From NCBI GenBank assembly GCA_048939245.1, contig JBHLPR010000042.1, forward strand, positions 1 to 18,418: a stretch of 18,418 bases of DNA, read 5' to 3'. The first letter of the stretch is position 1, and every line of letters begins with the position of its first letter. This DNA is from Promethearchaeota archaeon (lineage in GTDB: Archaea; Asgardarchaeota; Hermodarchaeia; Hermodarchaeales; Hermodarchaeaceae). A program made the position numbers and the translations under genes. This document shows positions 10,113 to 18,418 of the stretch, piece by piece. A model generated the notes under the pieces. It was not told the DNA's origin, searched no databases, and saw nothing but the letters and a program-made list of their open reading frames with translations.

Positions 10113-10583
10113 TTATTTTGTTCCGCGAACCAATGTAATCTCCATTGCTGAGACGTTCGCGACGTTGCCTTCGGCGGTTTTGACCTGCTCTGTCGAGATG
10201 TCGATATTGTTCACAACGAGATCAGGCATGAATCGGTTTCGTAGCACCTCAGCAACGTCTACGGCGCGGCTGATGGCTCGTCCCCGGGCCTTGATCACGA
10301 GTTCATCGGGGTTTCGGTTGAGTTGCGTAACACAGGCAGTGATATAGCTCATTAACGGTTTACTGCCAACAAAGACGACGCTTTCGTCGCGTCGTGACTT
10401 GGGGGCTTCCGCTTTAGCTTCTGCCTTAGCTTCTGCCTTAGCTTCAGCTTTGGGTTTAGGTTCTTTTTTCTTCGGAGCCTTGGCTTTTGGTTCTTCAGCC
10501 TTGGGCTCTTCCGCTTTAGCTTCTTCAGGTTTTGGAGTCTCAGCAGATTCTGTTTCTTTAGACATTTTGGGAGTTTCCTCCAT
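10113..10583 (-). CDS. albA: DNA/RNA-binding protein Alba with a long low-complexity N-terminal extension
   Basis: [27 protein letters not shown] and NVSAMEITL Alba signature, preceded by about 62 aa rich in K/E/A/P. Confidence 0.95.
10405..10452. repeat. Four imperfect 12-bp tandem repeats encoding (KAEA)4 in the Alba tail
   Basis: GCTTCCGCTTTA GCTTCTGCCTTA GCTTCTGCCTTA GCTTCAGCTTTG. Confidence 0.85.
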
Positions 10584-12402: not shown

Positions 12403-12888
12403 CTAATATGCCGCGGCGTGAGTTTCTCCAGTTAAGGTCTCTTTTAAAATCTGACCTCGCCTATTTTGGAGTGAGACTCTTACCACACTAACAGCATTAG
12501 CTCCCCATACCGTTCGTTTAACATCTCTTTCCAGCATTTTAACTGCGGAATCATTGCTTAGTTCCTGGAATGCCCCAGGCCCTAGGTGAAGCAAAAGATG
12601 AAGGATTGTTCCCGCTTCTTGAAATAGAGGATCAGGAGTTATGTCTAAATCCGCCTCTTCAGCTGTTATTGTCATCGGCAGGGGTTTCCAATTGAAATAT
12701 CGTTTACGAGCTTCCTTGCGAATATCCACTAATCCTGCACAACATAGCACTTCGATTACATCATAGAGTCGTCGTTTTTCTTGGAGTGGCAAGCCTAAGT
12801 GCATAAGAAGTGTATTAGCAGTGTATTCTTGATCGGGATGTTCCTGTAAAAAGGCAATAACGTGTCTGGCAACCTCGCCTAACTTCAT
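12403..12888 (-). CDS. E2F/DP-like winged-helix DNA-binding domain protein with an unknown C-terminal domain
   Basis: Residues 1-70 contain KRRLYDVIEVLCCAGLV...KRYFNW, matching the E2F/DP consensus RR(I/L)YDxxNVLxxxGL(I/V)...W. GAGG RBS upstream. Confidence 0.8.
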   Translation of the reverse strand: MKLGEVARHVIAFLQEHPDQEYTANTLLMHLGLPLQEKRRLYDVIEVLCCAGLVDIRKEARKRYFNWKPLPMTITAEEADLDITPDPLFQEAGTILHLLLHLGPGAFQELSNDSAVKMLERDVKRTVWGANAVSVVRVSLQNRRGQILKETLTGETHAAAY

Positions 12889-12910
12889 ATCGATATCCTC
12901 GCCCAGTCCA

Positions 12911-13004
12911 TAACACTCTAAGGCAAGCTACATATTACTCTCCAAGAGTTAGCCTAATGAAGGCTATTCCAGCGAATCCGAGAGTAGCTTCCCTCAAAGC
13001 ATCA
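12911..13004 (-). ncRNA. Putative structured 5' leader RNA (multibranch) of the E2F/DP-like gene
   Basis: On the minus strand, TGATGCTTTGAGGGAAGCTAC pairs with GTAGCTTGCCTTAGAGTGTTA (one mismatch, several G-U pairs) and encloses three short hairpins. A TTTTTAA box lies about 30 nt upstream. Confidence 0.5.
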
Positions 13005-13196
13005 AGTGTATCTTTACCCTTTCCATTTCTTGTTAAAAAGAGCTGGTATTACGCATTGACATTCCTAAAATATTCTTAGAACAGTTATTTAGAAAGACGC
13101 ACCCAGCTCTGATACAATAGTATTGATGAGTCAGTAAAAGGAGAGAGCTTATATCAGTTGTTTCATGCTAGTAGAGTTGGGGCAAGGCTGGTCGGA

Positions 13197-14450
13197 ATGC
13201 GGAAGAGTCGCCTAGGAATTATTCTCGTCGTCCTCTTACTACTTTTGATTGGAGCGACATTGCCTCCCCGCGTTTCGGCTTTTAATTATGTTCACTACTG
13301 GAGAATTAACTTCGCTGGATCTATTGAGGTCACCGGAAATGAATCAATGCCAATAACACCATATTGGAATTACATCGGTAACACGAGCTGGCAGACCTGT
13401 GAGCTGCTTTCCTTTGAAATGACCCTGAATGACACCCCGATAGTGATTACAGGGATGGGTGTTGACATCGATGGAAATCCTCGCTTAACACTTAATTTGT
13501 CTTCAGGGTTACAACCCGAAGAGGTTCTGAGATGGGATGAAGAATGGTTATTCACCGTTGCGAATCGCCGTCCCGCCCTTCCACCCATTAGCGAACTCCG
13601 TTCAGGTCGGGTCGATGAGATTGAAAACCTAATGGATGTCGATGAGTTACTCAGATATACTCAGGCAACGACATTATGGAAAAGGTGGAATAGCAATCTT
13701 ACTGAAATTGCAGAGCTTATACGTGATGGACTAGCGGAAGACCAACAAGATAATGTTCTAAGCCTATTATTTGCCAGTATTCAGTGGATTCAAAACACCA
13801 TTATTCGTTCAGGTGGTGTAACAGAGCCCCAATATCCTGAAGAAACCATTATGAGCCAAATTGGAGATTGTGATGACCAATCCAATCTTCTAATTGTGCT
13901 CCTCCGAATTTTTAATATCCCATGTTACTTAACAACGGGCCATTGGTTTCAAGATGGTGCCCGAACGAGCGGATTCCTCTGGGGTTCTATAAGTGAAAAC
14001 GCCTACCGTTATGTTGATTACCAAAACTCTGTGGGACATGGTTGGGCTATGGTATTTGTTCCACCCTGGGGCTGGTTACCTTTTGATTTGTTTGCATTAG
14101 AGCCGGGATCAGATCCTGAGGAAGCATATACGAATTCGCTTTTCGCTTCAAGCCTACCATTTGCGAGCCTCTGGCAAATTATTACCAGCGACTATATCGC
14201 TAAACGACGAACAGAACAGGCGAGCTTGTTTACGTATCAGGTTCATCGTATAGAAATTGAAGAATGGACCTCACTTGGTTCAGTTCCAATTATTGATGCC
14301 GAATACTTGTTGACGAATGTAGCAACACTAATTGTTCTTATTATCACTCTGGGCTTTTTGACATTTCTTGTGGGAGTAGCTATTCGAAAACAGCCACAGG
14401 AGGAGCTAAAACATGACTCCACGACTCGCACCCAGTACACTTTACACTGA
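13197..14450 (+). CDS. Transglutaminase-like (Transglut_core) protein, exported and C-terminally membrane-anchored
   Basis: Cys-His-Asp triad motifs GDCDDQSNL, GHGWAMVF and GWLPFD. Signal peptide after MRKSR (ATG 13197; the ORF track starts at 13158) and a C-terminal TM helix. Overlaps bshC by 38 nt. Confidence 0.85.
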   Translation: MRKSRLGIILVVLLLLLIGATLPPRVSAFNYVHYWRINFAGSIEVTGNESMPITPYWNYIGNTSWQTCELLSFEMTLNDTPIVITGMGVDIDGNPRLTLNLSSGLQPEEVLRWDEEWLFTVANRRPALPPISELRSGRVDEIENLMDVDELLRYTQATTLWKRWNSNLTEIAELIRDGLAEDQQDNVLSLLFASIQWIQNTIIRSGGVTEPQYPEETIMSQIGDCDDQSNLLIVLLRIFNIPCYLTTGHWFQDGARTSGFLWGSISENAYRYVDYQNSVGHGWAMVFVPPWGWLPFDLFALEPGSDPEEAYTNSLFASSLPFASLWQIITSDYIAKRRTEQASLFTYQVHRIEIEEWTSLGSVPIIDAEYLLTNVATLIVLIITLGFLTFLVGVAIRKQPQEELKHDSTTRTQYTLH

Positions 14451-16182
14451 ATACATATTCGATGACAATGAAGCCGCCCTACAATTCTGGGGACCAATTC
14501 CAAAGAACATCAAAGAAGCAATCAATCTAAGCACATCATTGATAGACGCATACCACAAAACACAACCAGTTTTCACTCAAGAACGCTTTCATGACCTCAT
14601 TAAAAGCCTCGAAGCAATCCATAAAAAATTCGACATGTTCTCACCACAGGTGAAAGAGAACCTTGCTAATCTCCAACAACAAGGCGCAGTAATTGAAGCA
14701 GGACATCAACCCGCCCTGTTAGGTGGACCCGGCTTCGTGATAAACAAAATCGCAGCAATAACCAAAATCGCATTAATACAACAAACAACCCCCCTCATGT
14801 TTGTTGGTGATCACGACCATGAGCAGAAAGAATTGACCGTCATTCACCTTCCCAGTCCTGGACCACGGGGATTAACCTTTTCCTTACCTATCTCCCGCGA
14901 ATTCAGGATGTCTCCTATGCACGTGCTTCCTCTGCCTCCCAAAAAATGGCTAAAAAACGTGGTTGATAAAATCACAGCAACATATCATGAATTAGTAATT
15001 GGGTCCGCTAAACAAAATATAGAAGATTATGAACAACGCCTGAAAATTTTACGCACACTTCTTGAAACAACCTATAACAGAGCAAATAGTATTGCCGAAT
15101 GGACAATCAGACTTTGGCATCAAATTACCAATATCACTCAGGATAGTGGTGTACTCTTCCAGAGCTTCTCCTACCCAGCGATTCGCGAACTCATGTTGCC
15201 TGCATTTGAATATCTACTCAGAGATACAAATCGACAAAATCTCATTAAAGCTTTGAATACTAGCGCGGAAAAACTCGAACAACTCGGATACGAACCAGGC
15301 ATTGGAAAAAGAGCTGAGAATTATGTGCCATTCCATCTTGAATGCCCAACCACCGAGTGTAATCGAACCCGCTTGGACCCCACAATTACCTCAAACCCAT
15401 CAGAGCCACACATCACCATCTCTGCCCAGTGTCCCAAATGTAAGGTCACACACACCATTGAGGTAAAAACAACAGCTCCGGACCTAGCTGACTGGAAGAC
15501 CTATCTTTCCCCCCGCGTCGATACACGTGCATTTCTTGTGCAAAGTTACACACCAGTCATTCTTCATGTTGGAGGAGCAGGGGAAACCAGCTATCATGCC
15601 CAAGTAATACCAGCCCTTCAGGCAACTAACAGTGTAGCTCCAATTTTCTATCGCTATACCCGAATATACTATGAAAACCCCTGGTCGAAAAGTCTCGCTC
15701 AAAAACTTGCACGTGAAAAGTTAATGCCTTTGAATCACGAGGAACTGCTATGCTTTGAAGCAGCGATTAATACAGGATATGCTGAGGAAAATACTGGAGT
15801 TGTGCAATCACTTTTCGCTGCCAGTCAAGAACATATCACTGATACCATCGAACGGTTGATTGAAGCGGAATCTCAACTGGAAAAAGAACGAAACGAATCC
15901 ATCAACCACCAACGTGAAATCACGGATTTGACACTAACGAAGGAAAACCAAGCGAAGATAGGACGCCTTACACGCCGTCGCCAAATACTACAAACCTATC
16001 TATCTCAAATGTTTGGTCGCTATTCCGTCGAACGTCTTGGACAGGAAGTAAGCTATCTTTGGCTTGATGCCGCCATATCAATACACCCAAACCATCACTT
16101 CAGCCGGCTTCTCGCGCATTATCAAAAATATACTCCGTCATCAGCCACATTTTATTTGGTCAACCAGGGGATGCAGCAGTAG
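14413..16182 (+). CDS. bshC: Bacillithiol biosynthesis cysteine-adding enzyme BshC, divergent, with a Cys4 insertion
   Basis: IEAGHQPALLGGPGFVINK (cf. TGQQxGLxxGPLYxxxK), GDHDHEQKEL (cf. EDHDFxE), LSPRVDTR (cf. FSPNVxxR), HVGGAGETSYHAQ (cf. YVGGPGExxYxAQ), a C-terminal coiled coil, and location next to bshA. Confidence 0.8.
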   Translation: MTPRLAPSTLYTEYIFDDNEAALQFWGPIPKNIKEAINLSTSLIDAYHKTQPVFTQERFHDLIKSLEAIHKKFDMFSPQVKENLANLQQQGAVIEAGHQPALLGGPGFVINKIAAITKIALIQQTTPLMFVGDHDHEQKELTVIHLPSPGPRGLTFSLPISREFRMSPMHVLPLPPKKWLKNVVDKITATYHELVIGSAKQNIEDYEQRLKILRTLLETTYNRANSIAEWTIRLWHQITNITQDSGVLFQSFSYPAIRELMLPAFEYLLRDTNRQNLIKALNTSAEKLEQLGYEPGIGKRAENYVPFHLECPTTECNRTRLDPTITSNPSEPHITISAQCPKCKVTHTIEVKTTAPDLADWKTYLSPRVDTRAFLVQSYTPVILHVGGAGETSYHAQVIPALQATNSVAPIFYRYTRIYYENPWSKSLAQKLAREKLMPLNHEELLCFEAAINTGYAEENTGVVQSLFAASQEHITDTIERLIEAESQLEKERNESINHQREITDLTLTKENQAKIGRLTRRRQILQTYLSQMFGRYSVERLGQEVSYLWLDAAISIHPNHHFSRLLAHYQKYTPSSATFYLVNQGMQQ

Positions 16183-16235
16183 GACATGGTAAGACTATTT
16201 TTATTGGCCTGCTCCTCAAGTTTCAACGAATCATC

Positions 16236-16748
16236 ATGGAATTTCTTGATGTATTGAAAGGTCGACGTAGCATTCGACAATATCATTCTCACGAAGTCGA
16301 AAAAGAAAAAATCGACACTATCCTTGAAGCTGCTCAATGGGCACCATCAGCATCTAACAAGCAACCCTGGCACTTCATCGTTGTCCAAGATAACGCAAAT
16401 CGTAAACGTCTGGGGCAAATTCATTCGCACGGTCGATTCATGGAAGAAGCACCTGTTGTCATCGTAGTGCTGGGAAACCCCGAAGCACATCCGAAGTATT
16501 ATCTGTGTGATCCCCATCAGGCTGTTCAAAATATACTTCTTACAGCATACTGGTTAGGCTTGCGATCATGTTGGATGGGAGTTCGAGGAACGCCTTTCGA
16601 GAACGAGATAAAAGAGCTTCTAGAGGTTCCACATGGACTCACGGTTATATGCACCGTTTCAATTGGCTACTCTGATCAGAAACGAGAAAGCACACGCTAT
16701 CCATTAAGTGAACTAGTTTCATGGGAAAGATACGGGAAAACGGACTAG
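16236..16748 (+). CDS. Nitroreductase-family flavoprotein
   Basis: RRSIRQY, APSASNKQPWHFIVV and QNILLTAYWLGLRSCWMG. Confidence 0.93.
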   Translation: MEFLDVLKGRRSIRQYHSHEVEKEKIDTILEAAQWAPSASNKQPWHFIVVQDNANRKRLGQIHSHGRFMEEAPVVIVVLGNPEAHPKYYLCDPHQAVQNILLTAYWLGLRSCWMGVRGTPFENEIKELLEVPHGLTVICTVSIGYSDQKRESTRYPLSELVSWERYGKTD

Positions 16749-16758
16749 GAAACACCAG

Positions 16759-17865
16759 CTAGCCCTGAATTGCATATTCATAAATAGCTTCATACTGCGG
16801 TAGAATTTTGTCAACTGTATGATTATCAAGGATTGTTTGTCGGGCTGCCTGACCAAGGTCTGCTGCCAGTGTTGAGTCTGTGAGAATTACATAGAGCTTC
16901 TCGGCAAGAATATCAATATCCCCAAAAGGTGCTAGCAGTCCATTTTTTCCGTCTTTGACAATTTCTGGAATTCCACCAACTGCTGTAGCAACAACAGGAA
17001 GACCACAACTCATGGCCTCAAGTAGTGAAAGAGGAGCCCCTTCCAATTCAGAGCTCAATGCAAACGCACATGCACATCGAAGATATTGGTGGACATCGCG
17101 TTTGAACCCAGGACACCGAATCCGGTTATTAAGCTCGTACTTTCTAATAAGCCGATCAACCTCTGGGCGCGTTGGACCATCACCAATAAGGAGAAGGTCA
17201 ACATCTGGAACTTCATCAGCAATTTGCGCAAATGCTGTAACCAAGTCACAGACTCGTTTTACTGGACGGAAATTCGACACATGGATTAGGTGTCGTTTCT
17301 CGTTTTCCAACTCGTATTCACAGGTATTCGGTGCAAATAGGTCTGGATCCGTGAAGTTAGTGATTGGTTCAATGGAGCAGCGGACCCCAAGAGTTTGTTC
17401 AGCTGTTTCACATATATGCTTAGTAACACACGTAACAGCATTCGCCGCTTCAACGGCAAATCGTGTGGTTGGTTGGTAGGCGGGATCAGCTCCCAGGGTA
17501 TGCACATCACTTCCATGCAATGTAACAACGTATGGAACCCCAGTCAATTGCTGAGCAAGAAAGGCTGACACCGCATGAGGAATTGCATAATGCACATGTA
17601 AAAGATCTAGATGATGTTTCCGGACCACTTGAGCCATCCGTGAAGCAAGGGCCACTGTATAAGGTGGATAGCGAAAAAGTGGATATTCTAAGACATCCAC
17701 GAGATCAACTTTGACATTCTCATATCGACCTTCTTGTAGTTCAAAAGGGACTTCATAGGTGATGAACCGAACTTCATGACCACGTTTTGCGAGTTCAACA
17801 CCAAGTCGAGTACCGAGAAGCCCTGACCCTCCAACGCCTGGATAAATTGTGATACCTATTCGCAT
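16759..17865 (-). CDS. bshA: N-acetyl-alpha-D-glucosaminyl L-malate synthase BshA (GT4)
   Basis: GITIYPGVGGSG, YPLFRYPPY..ALAS, LDLLHVHYAIPHA, TLHGSDV and HVSNFRPVKRV, all characteristic of BshA. Confidence 0.92.
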   Translation of the reverse strand: MRIGITIYPGVGGSGLLGTRLGVELAKRGHEVRFITYEVPFELQEGRYENVKVDLVDVLEYPLFRYPPYTVALASRMAQVVRKHHLDLLHVHYAIPHAVSAFLAQQLTGVPYVVTLHGSDVHTLGADPAYQPTTRFAVEAANAVTCVTKHICETAEQTLGVRCSIEPITNFTDPDLFAPNTCEYELENEKRHLIHVSNFRPVKRVCDLVTAFAQIADEVPDVDLLLIGDGPTRPEVDRLIRKYELNNRIRCPGFKRDVHQYLRCACAFALSSELEGAPLSLLEAMSCGLPVVATAVGGIPEIVKDGKNGLLAPFGDIDILAEKLYVILTDSTLAADLGQAARQTILDNHTVDKILPQYEAIYEYAIQG

Positions 17866-17980
17866 TTTCTGTCTCTTGGCATGCTACCTTCCTTGCCCAT
17901 ATGTGTTATGATGTAGGGAAAACAGTGTGAAAGGGTAGCGTCAGCAAACCTTTTGGTTAGAAATGAAGGCATACTCTAGT

Positions 17981-18418
17981 ATGCCAAAATCATCACGGAA
18001 ACGGCTTTTAGTTATTAGCGCGCACCCTGATGATGAAACCTTTGGGTGTGGTGGAACCATTACTTTGGAAGCCACTCAGGGTGCTGAGGTGACCGTCTGT
18101 TGCCTGACGGGTACGCCGTCCCGGCATCGAGAGTTAAAATCGGCTTGCGAAGTTCTGGGAGCGAAAGTTATTGCGCTAAATGGGAAGGATTTGCATCTGA
18201 CTGTTTCGGAGGTAACAGATGCCCTCATCCCGATCATTCAAGAGGTTCAGCCGGAGGTACTCATCTCGCACGGGGCCGAAGATTATCATCCTGATCATCG
18301 CGTGGTTTATCAGGCGTTCCAACGAGCCGCAGAATGGGCAGGTCATTCGACACAATATCAGAAAAAAGCTTGGCGCCCTCAGCGACTCTTTAGCATGGAA
18401 ATTAATACCCTGCTTGCC
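17981..18418 (+). CDS. bshB: PIG-L/LmbE-family deacetylase, probable BshB; runs off the right edge (alternative ATG 17963)
   Basis: Not in the ORF track. Manual translation MPKSSRKRLLVISAHPDDETFGCGGTI...ACEVLGA...QPEVLISH..EDYHPDHRVV gives the AHPDDE and HPDH zinc motifs; divergent from bshA. Confidence 0.75.
   Translation, partial: MPKSSRKRLLVISAHPDDETFGCGGTITLEATQGAEVTVCCLTGTPSRHRELKSACEVLGAKVIALNGKDLHLTVSEVTDALIPIIQEVQPEVLISHGAEDYHPDHRVVYQAFQRAAEWAGHSTQYQKKAWRPQRLFSMEINTLLA

Follow-up and report, generated by a model that had tools for sequence, protein, structure and literature searches.

An E2F/DP-like winged-helix gene in a Hermodarchaeia genome and candidate target sites upstream of orc1/cdc6 and cdrS-ftsZ

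The sequence analysed, referred to as the window, is the whole 18,418-nucleotide (nt) stretch of contig JBHLPR010000042.1 from a Promethearchaeota archaeon of the Hermodarchaeia (assembly GCA_048939245.1). A whole gene on its minus strand (12403..12888, ATG start, stop codon included) encodes a 161-residue E2F/DP-like protein, in which a winged helix is followed by a C-terminal domain of no known family, an architecture that we termed type A. The protein is very likely a member of the E2F/DP family, and we consider it likely that it is a DNA-binding regulator. The fuller description, a sequence-specific regulator that binds double-stranded DNA and represents an Asgard-specific form of the E2F/DP winged-helix family, is held to be probable with slightly less assurance. 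That palindromes upstream of orc1/cdc6 and cdrS-ftsZ are its particular targets is put forward as a tentative proposal.

The winged helix occupies residues 1-68 (12685..12888, minus strand). The Pfam family E2F_TDP (PF02319) matched residues 3-67 with 35.9 bits (E 6e-9; gathering cut-off 25.7), and the Odin-type members of the group scored 33-38 bits against the same model; the NCBIfam search gave no match for the window protein. The RRxYD motif of the recognition helix is present as RRLYD at residues 39-43, and in the longer form KRRLYD (residues 38-43; 12760..12777, minus strand) the positions K38, R39, R40, Y42 and D43 were invariant in 23 Hermod- and Odin-type sequences. Among 18 close homologs E46, V47 and L48 were invariant as well. 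Conserved residues of the wing are K62, R63, Y64, F65 and W67, of which K62 and R63 were invariant and the wing tryptophan, W67, nearly so in the same homologs. An earlier annotation made from the letters alone (the sequence-only reading) had proposed an E2F/DP-like winged helix with Glu in place of the conserved Asn of YDxxN, and had named a poorly conserved RRxYD motif as a point that would speak against it. The Pfam score, the invariant motif and the finding of Glu46 at the E2F Asn position bear the proposal out.

A profile built from 23 type A sequences was compared with 177,635 distinct PDB sequences. It retrieved E2F8 (E 1.4e-5, both of its domains), E2F4 (E 3.2e-5) and DP2 (E 0.018); the other rows were DnaJ proteins, with E above 0.4, and chains of TrmB, MarR or ArsR were not found among the PDB sequences at E<=10. 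When the window protein was used as a single sequence, E2F4 was the top match over residues 3-68, with a weak E-value of 0.15. An AlphaFold2 (AF2) model calculated with a diverse alignment gave the winged helix a predicted local distance difference test score (pLDDT) of 83-93, with helices at residues 3-16, 24-31 and 35-50 and a beta hairpin at 54-67 made of strands 54-59 and 62-67. The structural match to DP2 (1cf7_B) had a Z-score of 8.5 and a root-mean-square deviation of 2.2 over 65 aligned residues, with 23% identity.

The gene is real and under strong purifying selection. The open reading frame at 12403-12888 was found exactly as the sequence-only reading had described it, and the residues quoted there (KLGEVARHVIAFL..., LGLPLQEKRRLYDVIEVLCCAGLVDIRKEARKRYFNW) match the translation. 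A word-indexed search of 5.8 billion proteins returned 32 homologs with 55-99% identity, all of which carry PF02319 and all of which are named 'hypothetical'. The ratio of nonsynonymous to synonymous substitution rates (dN/dS) was 0.07 for the whole gene in 13 genus-level orthologs; the winged helix (1-68) had a median of 0.04 and the C-terminal domain (89-152) one of 0.06, and the linker (69-88) and the nine residues at the C-terminus reached 0.32 and 0.35. All of these are rough ratios, since dS was above 1 and near saturation. The variable linker (12625..12684, minus strand) has pLDDT values below 50 at residues 72-82. E2F_TDP was found in a single gene of the window's genome, and a search of that genome with the type B profile described below gave no further convincing E2F-like gene. 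No longer or fused homologs were found using residues 1-70 or the type B alignment, which is weak evidence. The near relatives are labelled by source as Candidatus Hermodarchaeota or Hermodarchaeia, and their 90% cluster also contains a few labels of Hodarchaeota, Odinarchaeota and Promethearchaeota; this agrees with the Asgard host that had been thought probable. The assembly comprises 2.52 Mb in 122 contigs and is 88% complete with 44% GC, and DNA of the window was met again in metagenomes of sediment, mangrove and marsh; among the public runs listed for it there was no RNA data set.

The Asgard E2F/DP homolog family, this ortholog group included, is already published, as the sequence-only reading had guessed. 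Eme et al. 2023 (Nature 618:992, PMC10307638) describe in Suppl. 4.1.5 E2F/DP homologs across most Asgard groups. According to that section, similar DNA motifs are to be expected from the conservation of the DNA-binding domain and of the residues that contact bases, and homology is limited to the DNA-binding domain, regulator-binding and dimerisation domains being lacking. The sequence table of eukaryotic signature proteins (ESP) in the same source holds this ortholog group under 'E2F/DP PF02319', arCOG02749. Three of its entries (Hermodarchaeia_WORB2_22320, Hermodarchaeia_FT1 and Odinarchaeum LCB_4 OdinLCB4_00680) are the products of our loci L022, L026 and L034, and these align with the window protein over the full length at 75-85% identity (Hermod) and ~22% (Odin). 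A 2024 review (PMC7617429) also states that Asgard genomes encode E2F homologs. In the literature library searched, no published report was found that gives targets or a function of Asgard E2F-like proteins. As far as the text of the published accounts was available, the type A architecture, a linkage to a PDCD5-like gene and the conserved E2F-type palindromes at orc1/cdc6 and cdrS-ftsZ go beyond them.

Of 400 genomes of the phylum, 136 had PF02319 above the cut-off, usually in a single copy, and none of 14 control prokaryote genomes did. It occurs in most families of the phylum but is missing from some large ones, such as f7 (0/31), f10 (0/22) and f19 (0/14), and f20 (3/135) gave weak hits. 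Most Asgard E2F-like proteins have a second architecture, type B, of 167-207 residues: a winged helix with PKRRVYD is followed by a coiled coil rich in heptads, such as LQVQVAELKEQLR, and by a beta-rich tail that carries E-V-x-I-E. Type B loci (L003-L008, L012, L013, L046:511-1059) come from Loki/Heimdall-group, Sif, Baldr and other lineages, where type B usually occurs once per genome. When types A and B were aligned with hhalign, only the winged helix was common to both (97.8% probability, E 1e-12, 32% identity over 66 columns). Both carry RRxYD, and type B is without the three residues (LQE) that precede KRR. The Odin-like family f26 holds a type A protein together with a type B paralog; f27 was identified as Odinarchaeum because the L034 product is OdinLCB4_00680. 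Against the PDB, the type B profile matched E2F8 (E 1.1e-10), E2F4 (1.7e-6), Pyrococcus furiosus TrmB (0.012) and DP2 (0.018); since it touches P. furiosus TrmB, TrmB-like regulators are therefore taken as the nearest prokaryotic kin of the whole group. As a side observation, the type B plan parallels both TrmB and the E2F/DP order of DNA-binding domain, coiled coil and marked box, and no Pfam match to the coiled-coil/marked-box or DP families was obtained for it.

A hidden Markov model (HMM) search with type A against 1.84 billion representatives yielded 10 proteins only: one close cluster, three full-length relatives of 152 residues (one named Odinarchaeia), a Baldrarchaeia type B form and five proteins with tandem E2F_TDP domains. 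The tandem proteins are 195-248 residues long, like a minimal E2F7/8 (L038:8001-8588, L040:8001-8621, relatives P0038-P0042). Their genes lie on gene-dense, ORFan-rich metagenomic contigs of 40-73 kb beside genes for TBP, RCC1, a protein kinase, Kelch and DAGAT, surroundings reminiscent of giant viruses.

The conserved C-terminal domain covers residues 89-152 (12433..12624, minus strand). The C-terminal ~87-90 residues had no Pfam match, even at E<=10, and neither the PDB profile search nor the protein atlas assigned the domain to a family. Over 20 residues the PDB profile search showed some likeness to the beta-alpha-beta core of archaeal ribosomal protein uL23, but at E 0.25-0.5 this was too weak to be relied on. 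No coiled-coil/marked-box domain (PF16421) or DP dimerisation domain (PF08781) was found after the winged helix and no coiled coil was predicted; by hhalign the domain is unlike the type B tails and unlike the winged helix. The sequence-only reading had seen an unrecognised domain in place of the coiled coil and marked box, and these searches agree. In the AF2 model with the diverse alignment, the pLDDT of the domain rises to 76-88; residues 93-103 are extended, two helices follow at 106-110 and 113-126, and strands 137-141 and 147-152 form a hairpin. The Foldseek and VIA-align lists were filled by the winged helix, so that the fold searches effectively covered that part of the protein. A hidden second winged helix, suggested by a first AF2 model with three helices and a hairpin, was dropped after the better model and hhalign spoke against it.

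The C-terminal-domain profile matched 3 of 33 families of the phylum, namely f1, the family of the window (16/18), f26 (3/3) and f27 (4/4), and by this measure the domain is restricted to Hermod- and Odin-type Asgard genomes. Its polar motif M-L-E-R-D-V-K-R (residues 118-125; 12514..12537, minus strand) contains M118, R121, D122, K124 and R125, which are invariant across the Hermod- and Odin-type proteins despite ~22% overall identity. In 18 homologs these belong to a second invariant block made of F107, Q108, E109, S111, M118, E120, R121, D122, K124, R125, A132, L140, N142 and G145. The M-x-x-R-D-x-K-R residues fall on one face of a helix, which suggests a binding surface and not a packing role.

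Candidate target sites were found upstream of replication and division genes. In the window's genome the palindrome TTTCGCGCCAAA stands between a canonical origin-recognition box (ORB; TTCCAGTGGAAAT-AAGGGGGG) and the best orc1/cdc6 gene, 151 nt ahead of the ATG, and it is one of only two TTTSGCGCSAAA sites in the 2.5-Mb genome (0.9 expected). The core SGCGCCAA stands at -148 to -156 of orc1/cdc6 in 13 of 13 genus-level loci, with a varying 5' flank; the 28-bp element reads GTTAACAACTTTCGCGCCAAATGTGAAC, and a second genus has GCGCGCGC at this element. Odin-type genomes with a type A gene carry a GCGC element at -150 to -158 of orc1 (5/5) in regions of 21-42% GC, and it is the only GCGC within 400 nt in two of three f27 genomes. 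No GCGC was found within 400 nt upstream of orc1 in three genomes of f7, a family without E2F_TDP. Two f3 genomes were uninformative for this comparison, the region being GC-rich.

The second candidate, TTGGCGCCAA, is a 10-bp invariant island with poorly conserved flanks upstream of cdrS-ftsZ in 13 of 13 loci (element sequence AATTGGCGCCAATC). The distance from the island down to ftsZ is ~440 nt, and down to the cdrS-like ribbon-helix-helix gene ahead of ftsZ it is ~255 nt. The sequence-only reading had known of no targets for such proteins, and the field has now narrowed to the conserved sites at orc1/cdc6 and cdrS-ftsZ, whose link to the window protein is one that we infer only.

The region beside orc1/cdc6 (L048, G000:C81, 1031-1574) is a probable replication origin. 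In addition to the ORB it has GTTAAC/GTTCAC/GTGAAC words in several copies, and the blocks GAAACCCTAATATGG and TTCCAAAAGAAACGCTAGTATTTCC are conserved in it as well. In Odinarchaeum-type genomes (G303:C1:620220-625544; G302:C3:18711-24349) ftsZ and orc1/cdc6 are divergent and ~3 kb apart, and in several Hermod-type genomes they stand 35-40 kb apart on one contig. A histone-fold gene (L098, G000:C9:68300-69200) has conserved GCG words round its TATA box (GGCGACCCAAA, GGCGCCAAA, TTTAGCGGCG), with a central GGCGCC that is not invariant in relatives. Besides the histone gene and topo VI B, other intergenic WWSGCGCSWW sites lie near unrelated genes (MFS, MscS, ETF, S13).

E2F-type winged helices are known to act only in pairs, either as an E2F-DP heterodimer or as the E2F7/8 tandem. 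Any pairing of the window protein would be with itself, because the genome has a single E2F_TDP gene, and for the same two reasons a self-pair on palindromes is probable. A two-copy complex prediction scored 0.20 against a mark of 0.42, which carries no weight either way. We propose that two copies of the protein probably bind palindromic sites of the TTSGCGCSAA type and that the two Arg of RRxYD would read the guanines of the GCGC core, by analogy with E2F-DP. The C-terminal domain probably provides self-association, a ligand or partner surface, or both. The best candidate targets would be TTTCGCGCCAAA/SGCGCCAA, ~150 nt ahead of orc1/cdc6 beside the ORB, and the invariant TTGGCGCCAA before the cdrS-like/ftsZ pair, which would make the window protein a regulator of replication and division genes.

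E2F/DP drives the eukaryotic G1/S programme. A more far-reaching hypothesis, which we offer as speculative and somewhat improbable in its entirety, is that in Hermod- and Odin-type Asgard archaea the one E2F-like protein self-pairs on GCGC-core palindromes at the orc1/cdc6 origin-promoter, and at cdrS-ftsZ in the Hermod type. If so, TTTSGCGCSAAA-type E2F wiring of replication and division would predate eukaryotes, and the C-terminal domain, perhaps with a PDCD5-like neighbour, would be a pre-Rb switch. The existence of the gene being already published, the added value lies in a short list of testable sites for one small partnerless protein; the organisms are not culturable, but both protein and DNA are open to synthesis. 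If the binding is true, some of the target logic of E2F would have arisen before eukaryotes; if it is false, the domain would have entered cell-cycle control at a later stage.

Several observations weigh against a replication and division regulator of the E2F/DP type. Foldseek with two models and VIA-align placed the winged helices of Hop2, Z-alpha, ArsR/HlyU, MarR and Fur as high as those of E2F4 and DP2; E2F4 ranked 31-43, and other winged-helix families reached Z-scores up to 10.6, so the fold alone is not discriminating. The orc1 element lies within a larger conserved inverted repeat of the origin region (GTTMACA...TGTGAAC) and may belong to another factor, e.g. Orc1 itself. The palindrome upstream of ftsZ was not found in the Odin-type genomes, the site at the histone promoter is only partly conserved, and SGCGCS is absent from the upstream region of the E2F-like gene itself, so autoregulation is unsupported. 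There was no genome-wide intergenic enrichment: the ratio of intergenic to coding density was 0.92 for TTTSSCGC, WWSGCGCSWW was intergenic at 16 of 104 sites in a genome that is 13% intergenic, and TTSGCGCSAA occurred 9 times against 9.1 expected. The 13 genus-level loci are close kin and, where they agree, count as no more than one or two independent observations. DNA binding, oligomeric state and targets are all things that we infer.

The gene convergent with the E2F-like gene encodes a PDCD5-like protein of a dsDNA-binding family (PF01984; 11934..12329, plus strand), with 73 nt between the two stop codons, and is present in a single copy in the window's genome. The convergent pair was found at 17 of 17 Hermod-type loci and 4 of 4 Odinarchaeum (f27) loci, and in f26 one coiled-coil gene lies between the two; no PDCD5-like gene was seen beside type B genes. 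The linkage represents two or three independent lineages and is a lead, not proof of a functional link.

This linkage, found in Hermod- and Odin-type lineages with type A and not with type B, would also suit a protein that is associated with the origin or chromatin and is not a gene regulator, one that binds the GCGC element near orc1/cdc6, possibly together with the PDCD5-like protein, and acts on replication initiation or chromosome organisation. The orc1 element stands between the ORB and the orc1 start, inside the longer inverted repeat, the top Foldseek row was a Hop2 winged helix with kleisin and Cdc6-type winged helices also listed, and Odin-type members gave weak Pfam matches to TBPIP/Hop2 and TFIIE-beta, all below the cut-off. 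Such weak Pfam and fold rows are, however, generic to winged helices, and the convergent genes form no operon. The second palindrome stands in a promoter-type intergenic region of cdrS-ftsZ that is far from the origin in this assembly, and it is established that every characterised E2F_TDP protein is a transcription factor. We regard the origin or chromatin role as unlikely.

It seems quite improbable that the protein is an ordinary archaeal winged helix-turn-helix (wHTH) regulator of the TrmB/MarR kind with a local metabolic or stress role, its RRxYD motif and E2F_TDP score resulting from shared wHTH ancestry or convergence. TrmB (PF01978) was the second-best Pfam family for the window protein with 14.9 bits against a gathering cut-off of 25.6, followed by the viral F-93 winged helix with 12.9 bits, likewise far under its cut-off. 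One type B protein reached the TrmB cut-off (26.9 vs 25.6), and the P. furiosus TrmB matched by the type B profile shows NRVYD in the motif position and continues from its wHTH into a coiled coil; ArsR, MarR and Fur ranked as high as E2F/DP in the structure searches. On the other side, E2F_TDP scored 21 bits over TrmB and above its curated cut-off, the type A profile reached only E2F8, E2F4 and DP2 and none of the TrmB, MarR or ArsR chains, and PF02319 was absent from the 14 control genomes. The neighbouring genes differ between lineages save for the PDCD5-like gene, which implies no local metabolic operon. As to the generic-wHTH alternative raised by the sequence-only reading, the fold searches did not separate the families, and the sequence profiles favoured E2F/DP.

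A redox-sensing regulator in which Cys49-Cys50 (12739..12744, minus strand) switches DNA binding with oxidants and controls the nearby ferritin, hemerythrin and bacillithiol-type genes, an idea that extends the redox-sensitive CC pair of the sequence-only reading, is hardly credible. The window protein does have the Cys-Cys pair, and the wealth of iron and thiol genes that had been observed is confirmed (genes for two ferritins and a hemerythrin-domain protein, and the BshC-like, GT4 and PIG-L genes). The pair is not conserved, however (position 49 is Ser/Ala in many and position 50 Ser in some homologs of the same family at 55-75% identity, and Odin-type members have K/E/S/T-A/V and no Cys), Odin-type loci have a small GTPase gene and the PDCD5-like gene beside the E2F-like gene in place of the thiol and iron genes, and vicinal Cys-Cys disulfides are known to be strained and rare.

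The E2F-like gene is preceded by a 270-nt upstream region in which three parts were distinguished. Directly before the ATG, the block GGACTGGGCGAGGATATC (12889..12909, minus strand) is identical in 13 genus-level loci and includes GAGGA, a putative Shine-Dalgarno sequence. Ahead of it is a structured 5' leader of ~120 nt (12911..13004, minus strand), for which RNAalifold on 13 orthologous leaders predicted a 13-bp long-range stem (12992-13004 with 12911-12923) that encloses variable hairpins and ends just ahead of the GGACTGGGCGAGGATATC block. Pairing is kept through changes on both sides in 7 of the 13 pairs, and the stem could be a translation gate. The Rfam search of the window gave no match, and the leader as a C/D-box small RNA was dropped, the boxes being inconsistent between loci. 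The third part, GTAATACCAG-N3-TTTTTAA (13033..13052, minus strand), is conserved in 16 family-level loci and from its position and sequence would be the gene's promoter, with a putative B recognition element (BRE) and TATA box. The word GGTAATAC(C/T) is found once ahead of the TATA-like box in front of the E2F-like gene (13043-13052) and two to three times upstream of cdrS-ftsZ (L050 ~1960-2010). Its positions are conserved and promoter-proximal; a promoter element peculiar to the lineage, or a binding site for another factor, is a possible reading.

On the upstream side of the E2F-like gene, Hermod-type loci have a divergent gene for a transglutaminase-like membrane protein. In Odin-type loci (L031, L032, L033, L036, L037) a Rab/Ras-like small GTPase gene lies directly upstream on the same strand at a distance of 57-160 nt, and the two genes could be co-transcribed. 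Elsewhere in the window, at 14413-18418, this archaeal DNA holds a bacillithiol-type set of genes (BshC-like, nitroreductase, GT4 glycosyltransferase and PIG-L deacetylase). The gene at 10113-10583 (minus strand) encodes an Alba protein with an N-terminal extension of ~65 residues before the normal Alba core (PF01918, residues 69-131).

Compared with known systems, the window protein belongs to the same family and the same ortholog group as the homologs of Eme et al. 2023, with no difference at the family level; in the part of that source's text available here, no distinction of types A and B, PDCD5-like linkage, structured leader or candidate target sites was found. The type B Asgard proteins have a winged helix homologous to that of type A and C-terminal regions without detectable similarity to it. 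TrmB (PF01978; P. furiosus 3QPH) is the nearest prokaryotic wHTH by sequence, with NRVYD at the equivalent helix position. It follows the same plan as the window protein, an N-terminal wHTH and then a second part, which in TrmB serves dimerisation and effector binding. Unlike TrmB, the window protein is without a sugar-binding domain, and the type A profile misses TrmB in the PDB.

The eukaryotic E2F/DP proteins (PF02319; 1CF7, E2F4-DP2-DNA; 4YO2, E2F8 tandem) have, like the window protein, a winged helix with RRxYD followed by V-L-x-x-x-G-L-(I/V) and a wing Trp. The spacing before the motif is the same in E2F4 (LAVRQKRRIYD) and the window protein (LPLQEKRRLYD), and the RRLYD form is that of the second domain of E2F8. 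Unlike its eukaryotic relatives, the window protein has only 161 residues and is without the coiled-coil/marked-box, pocket-protein-binding or transactivation region; its genome has no DP partner gene, and it carries a C-terminal domain of its own. The YDxxN Asn of E2F and DP is replaced in type A by an acidic residue, Glu or, in Odin-type members, Asp.

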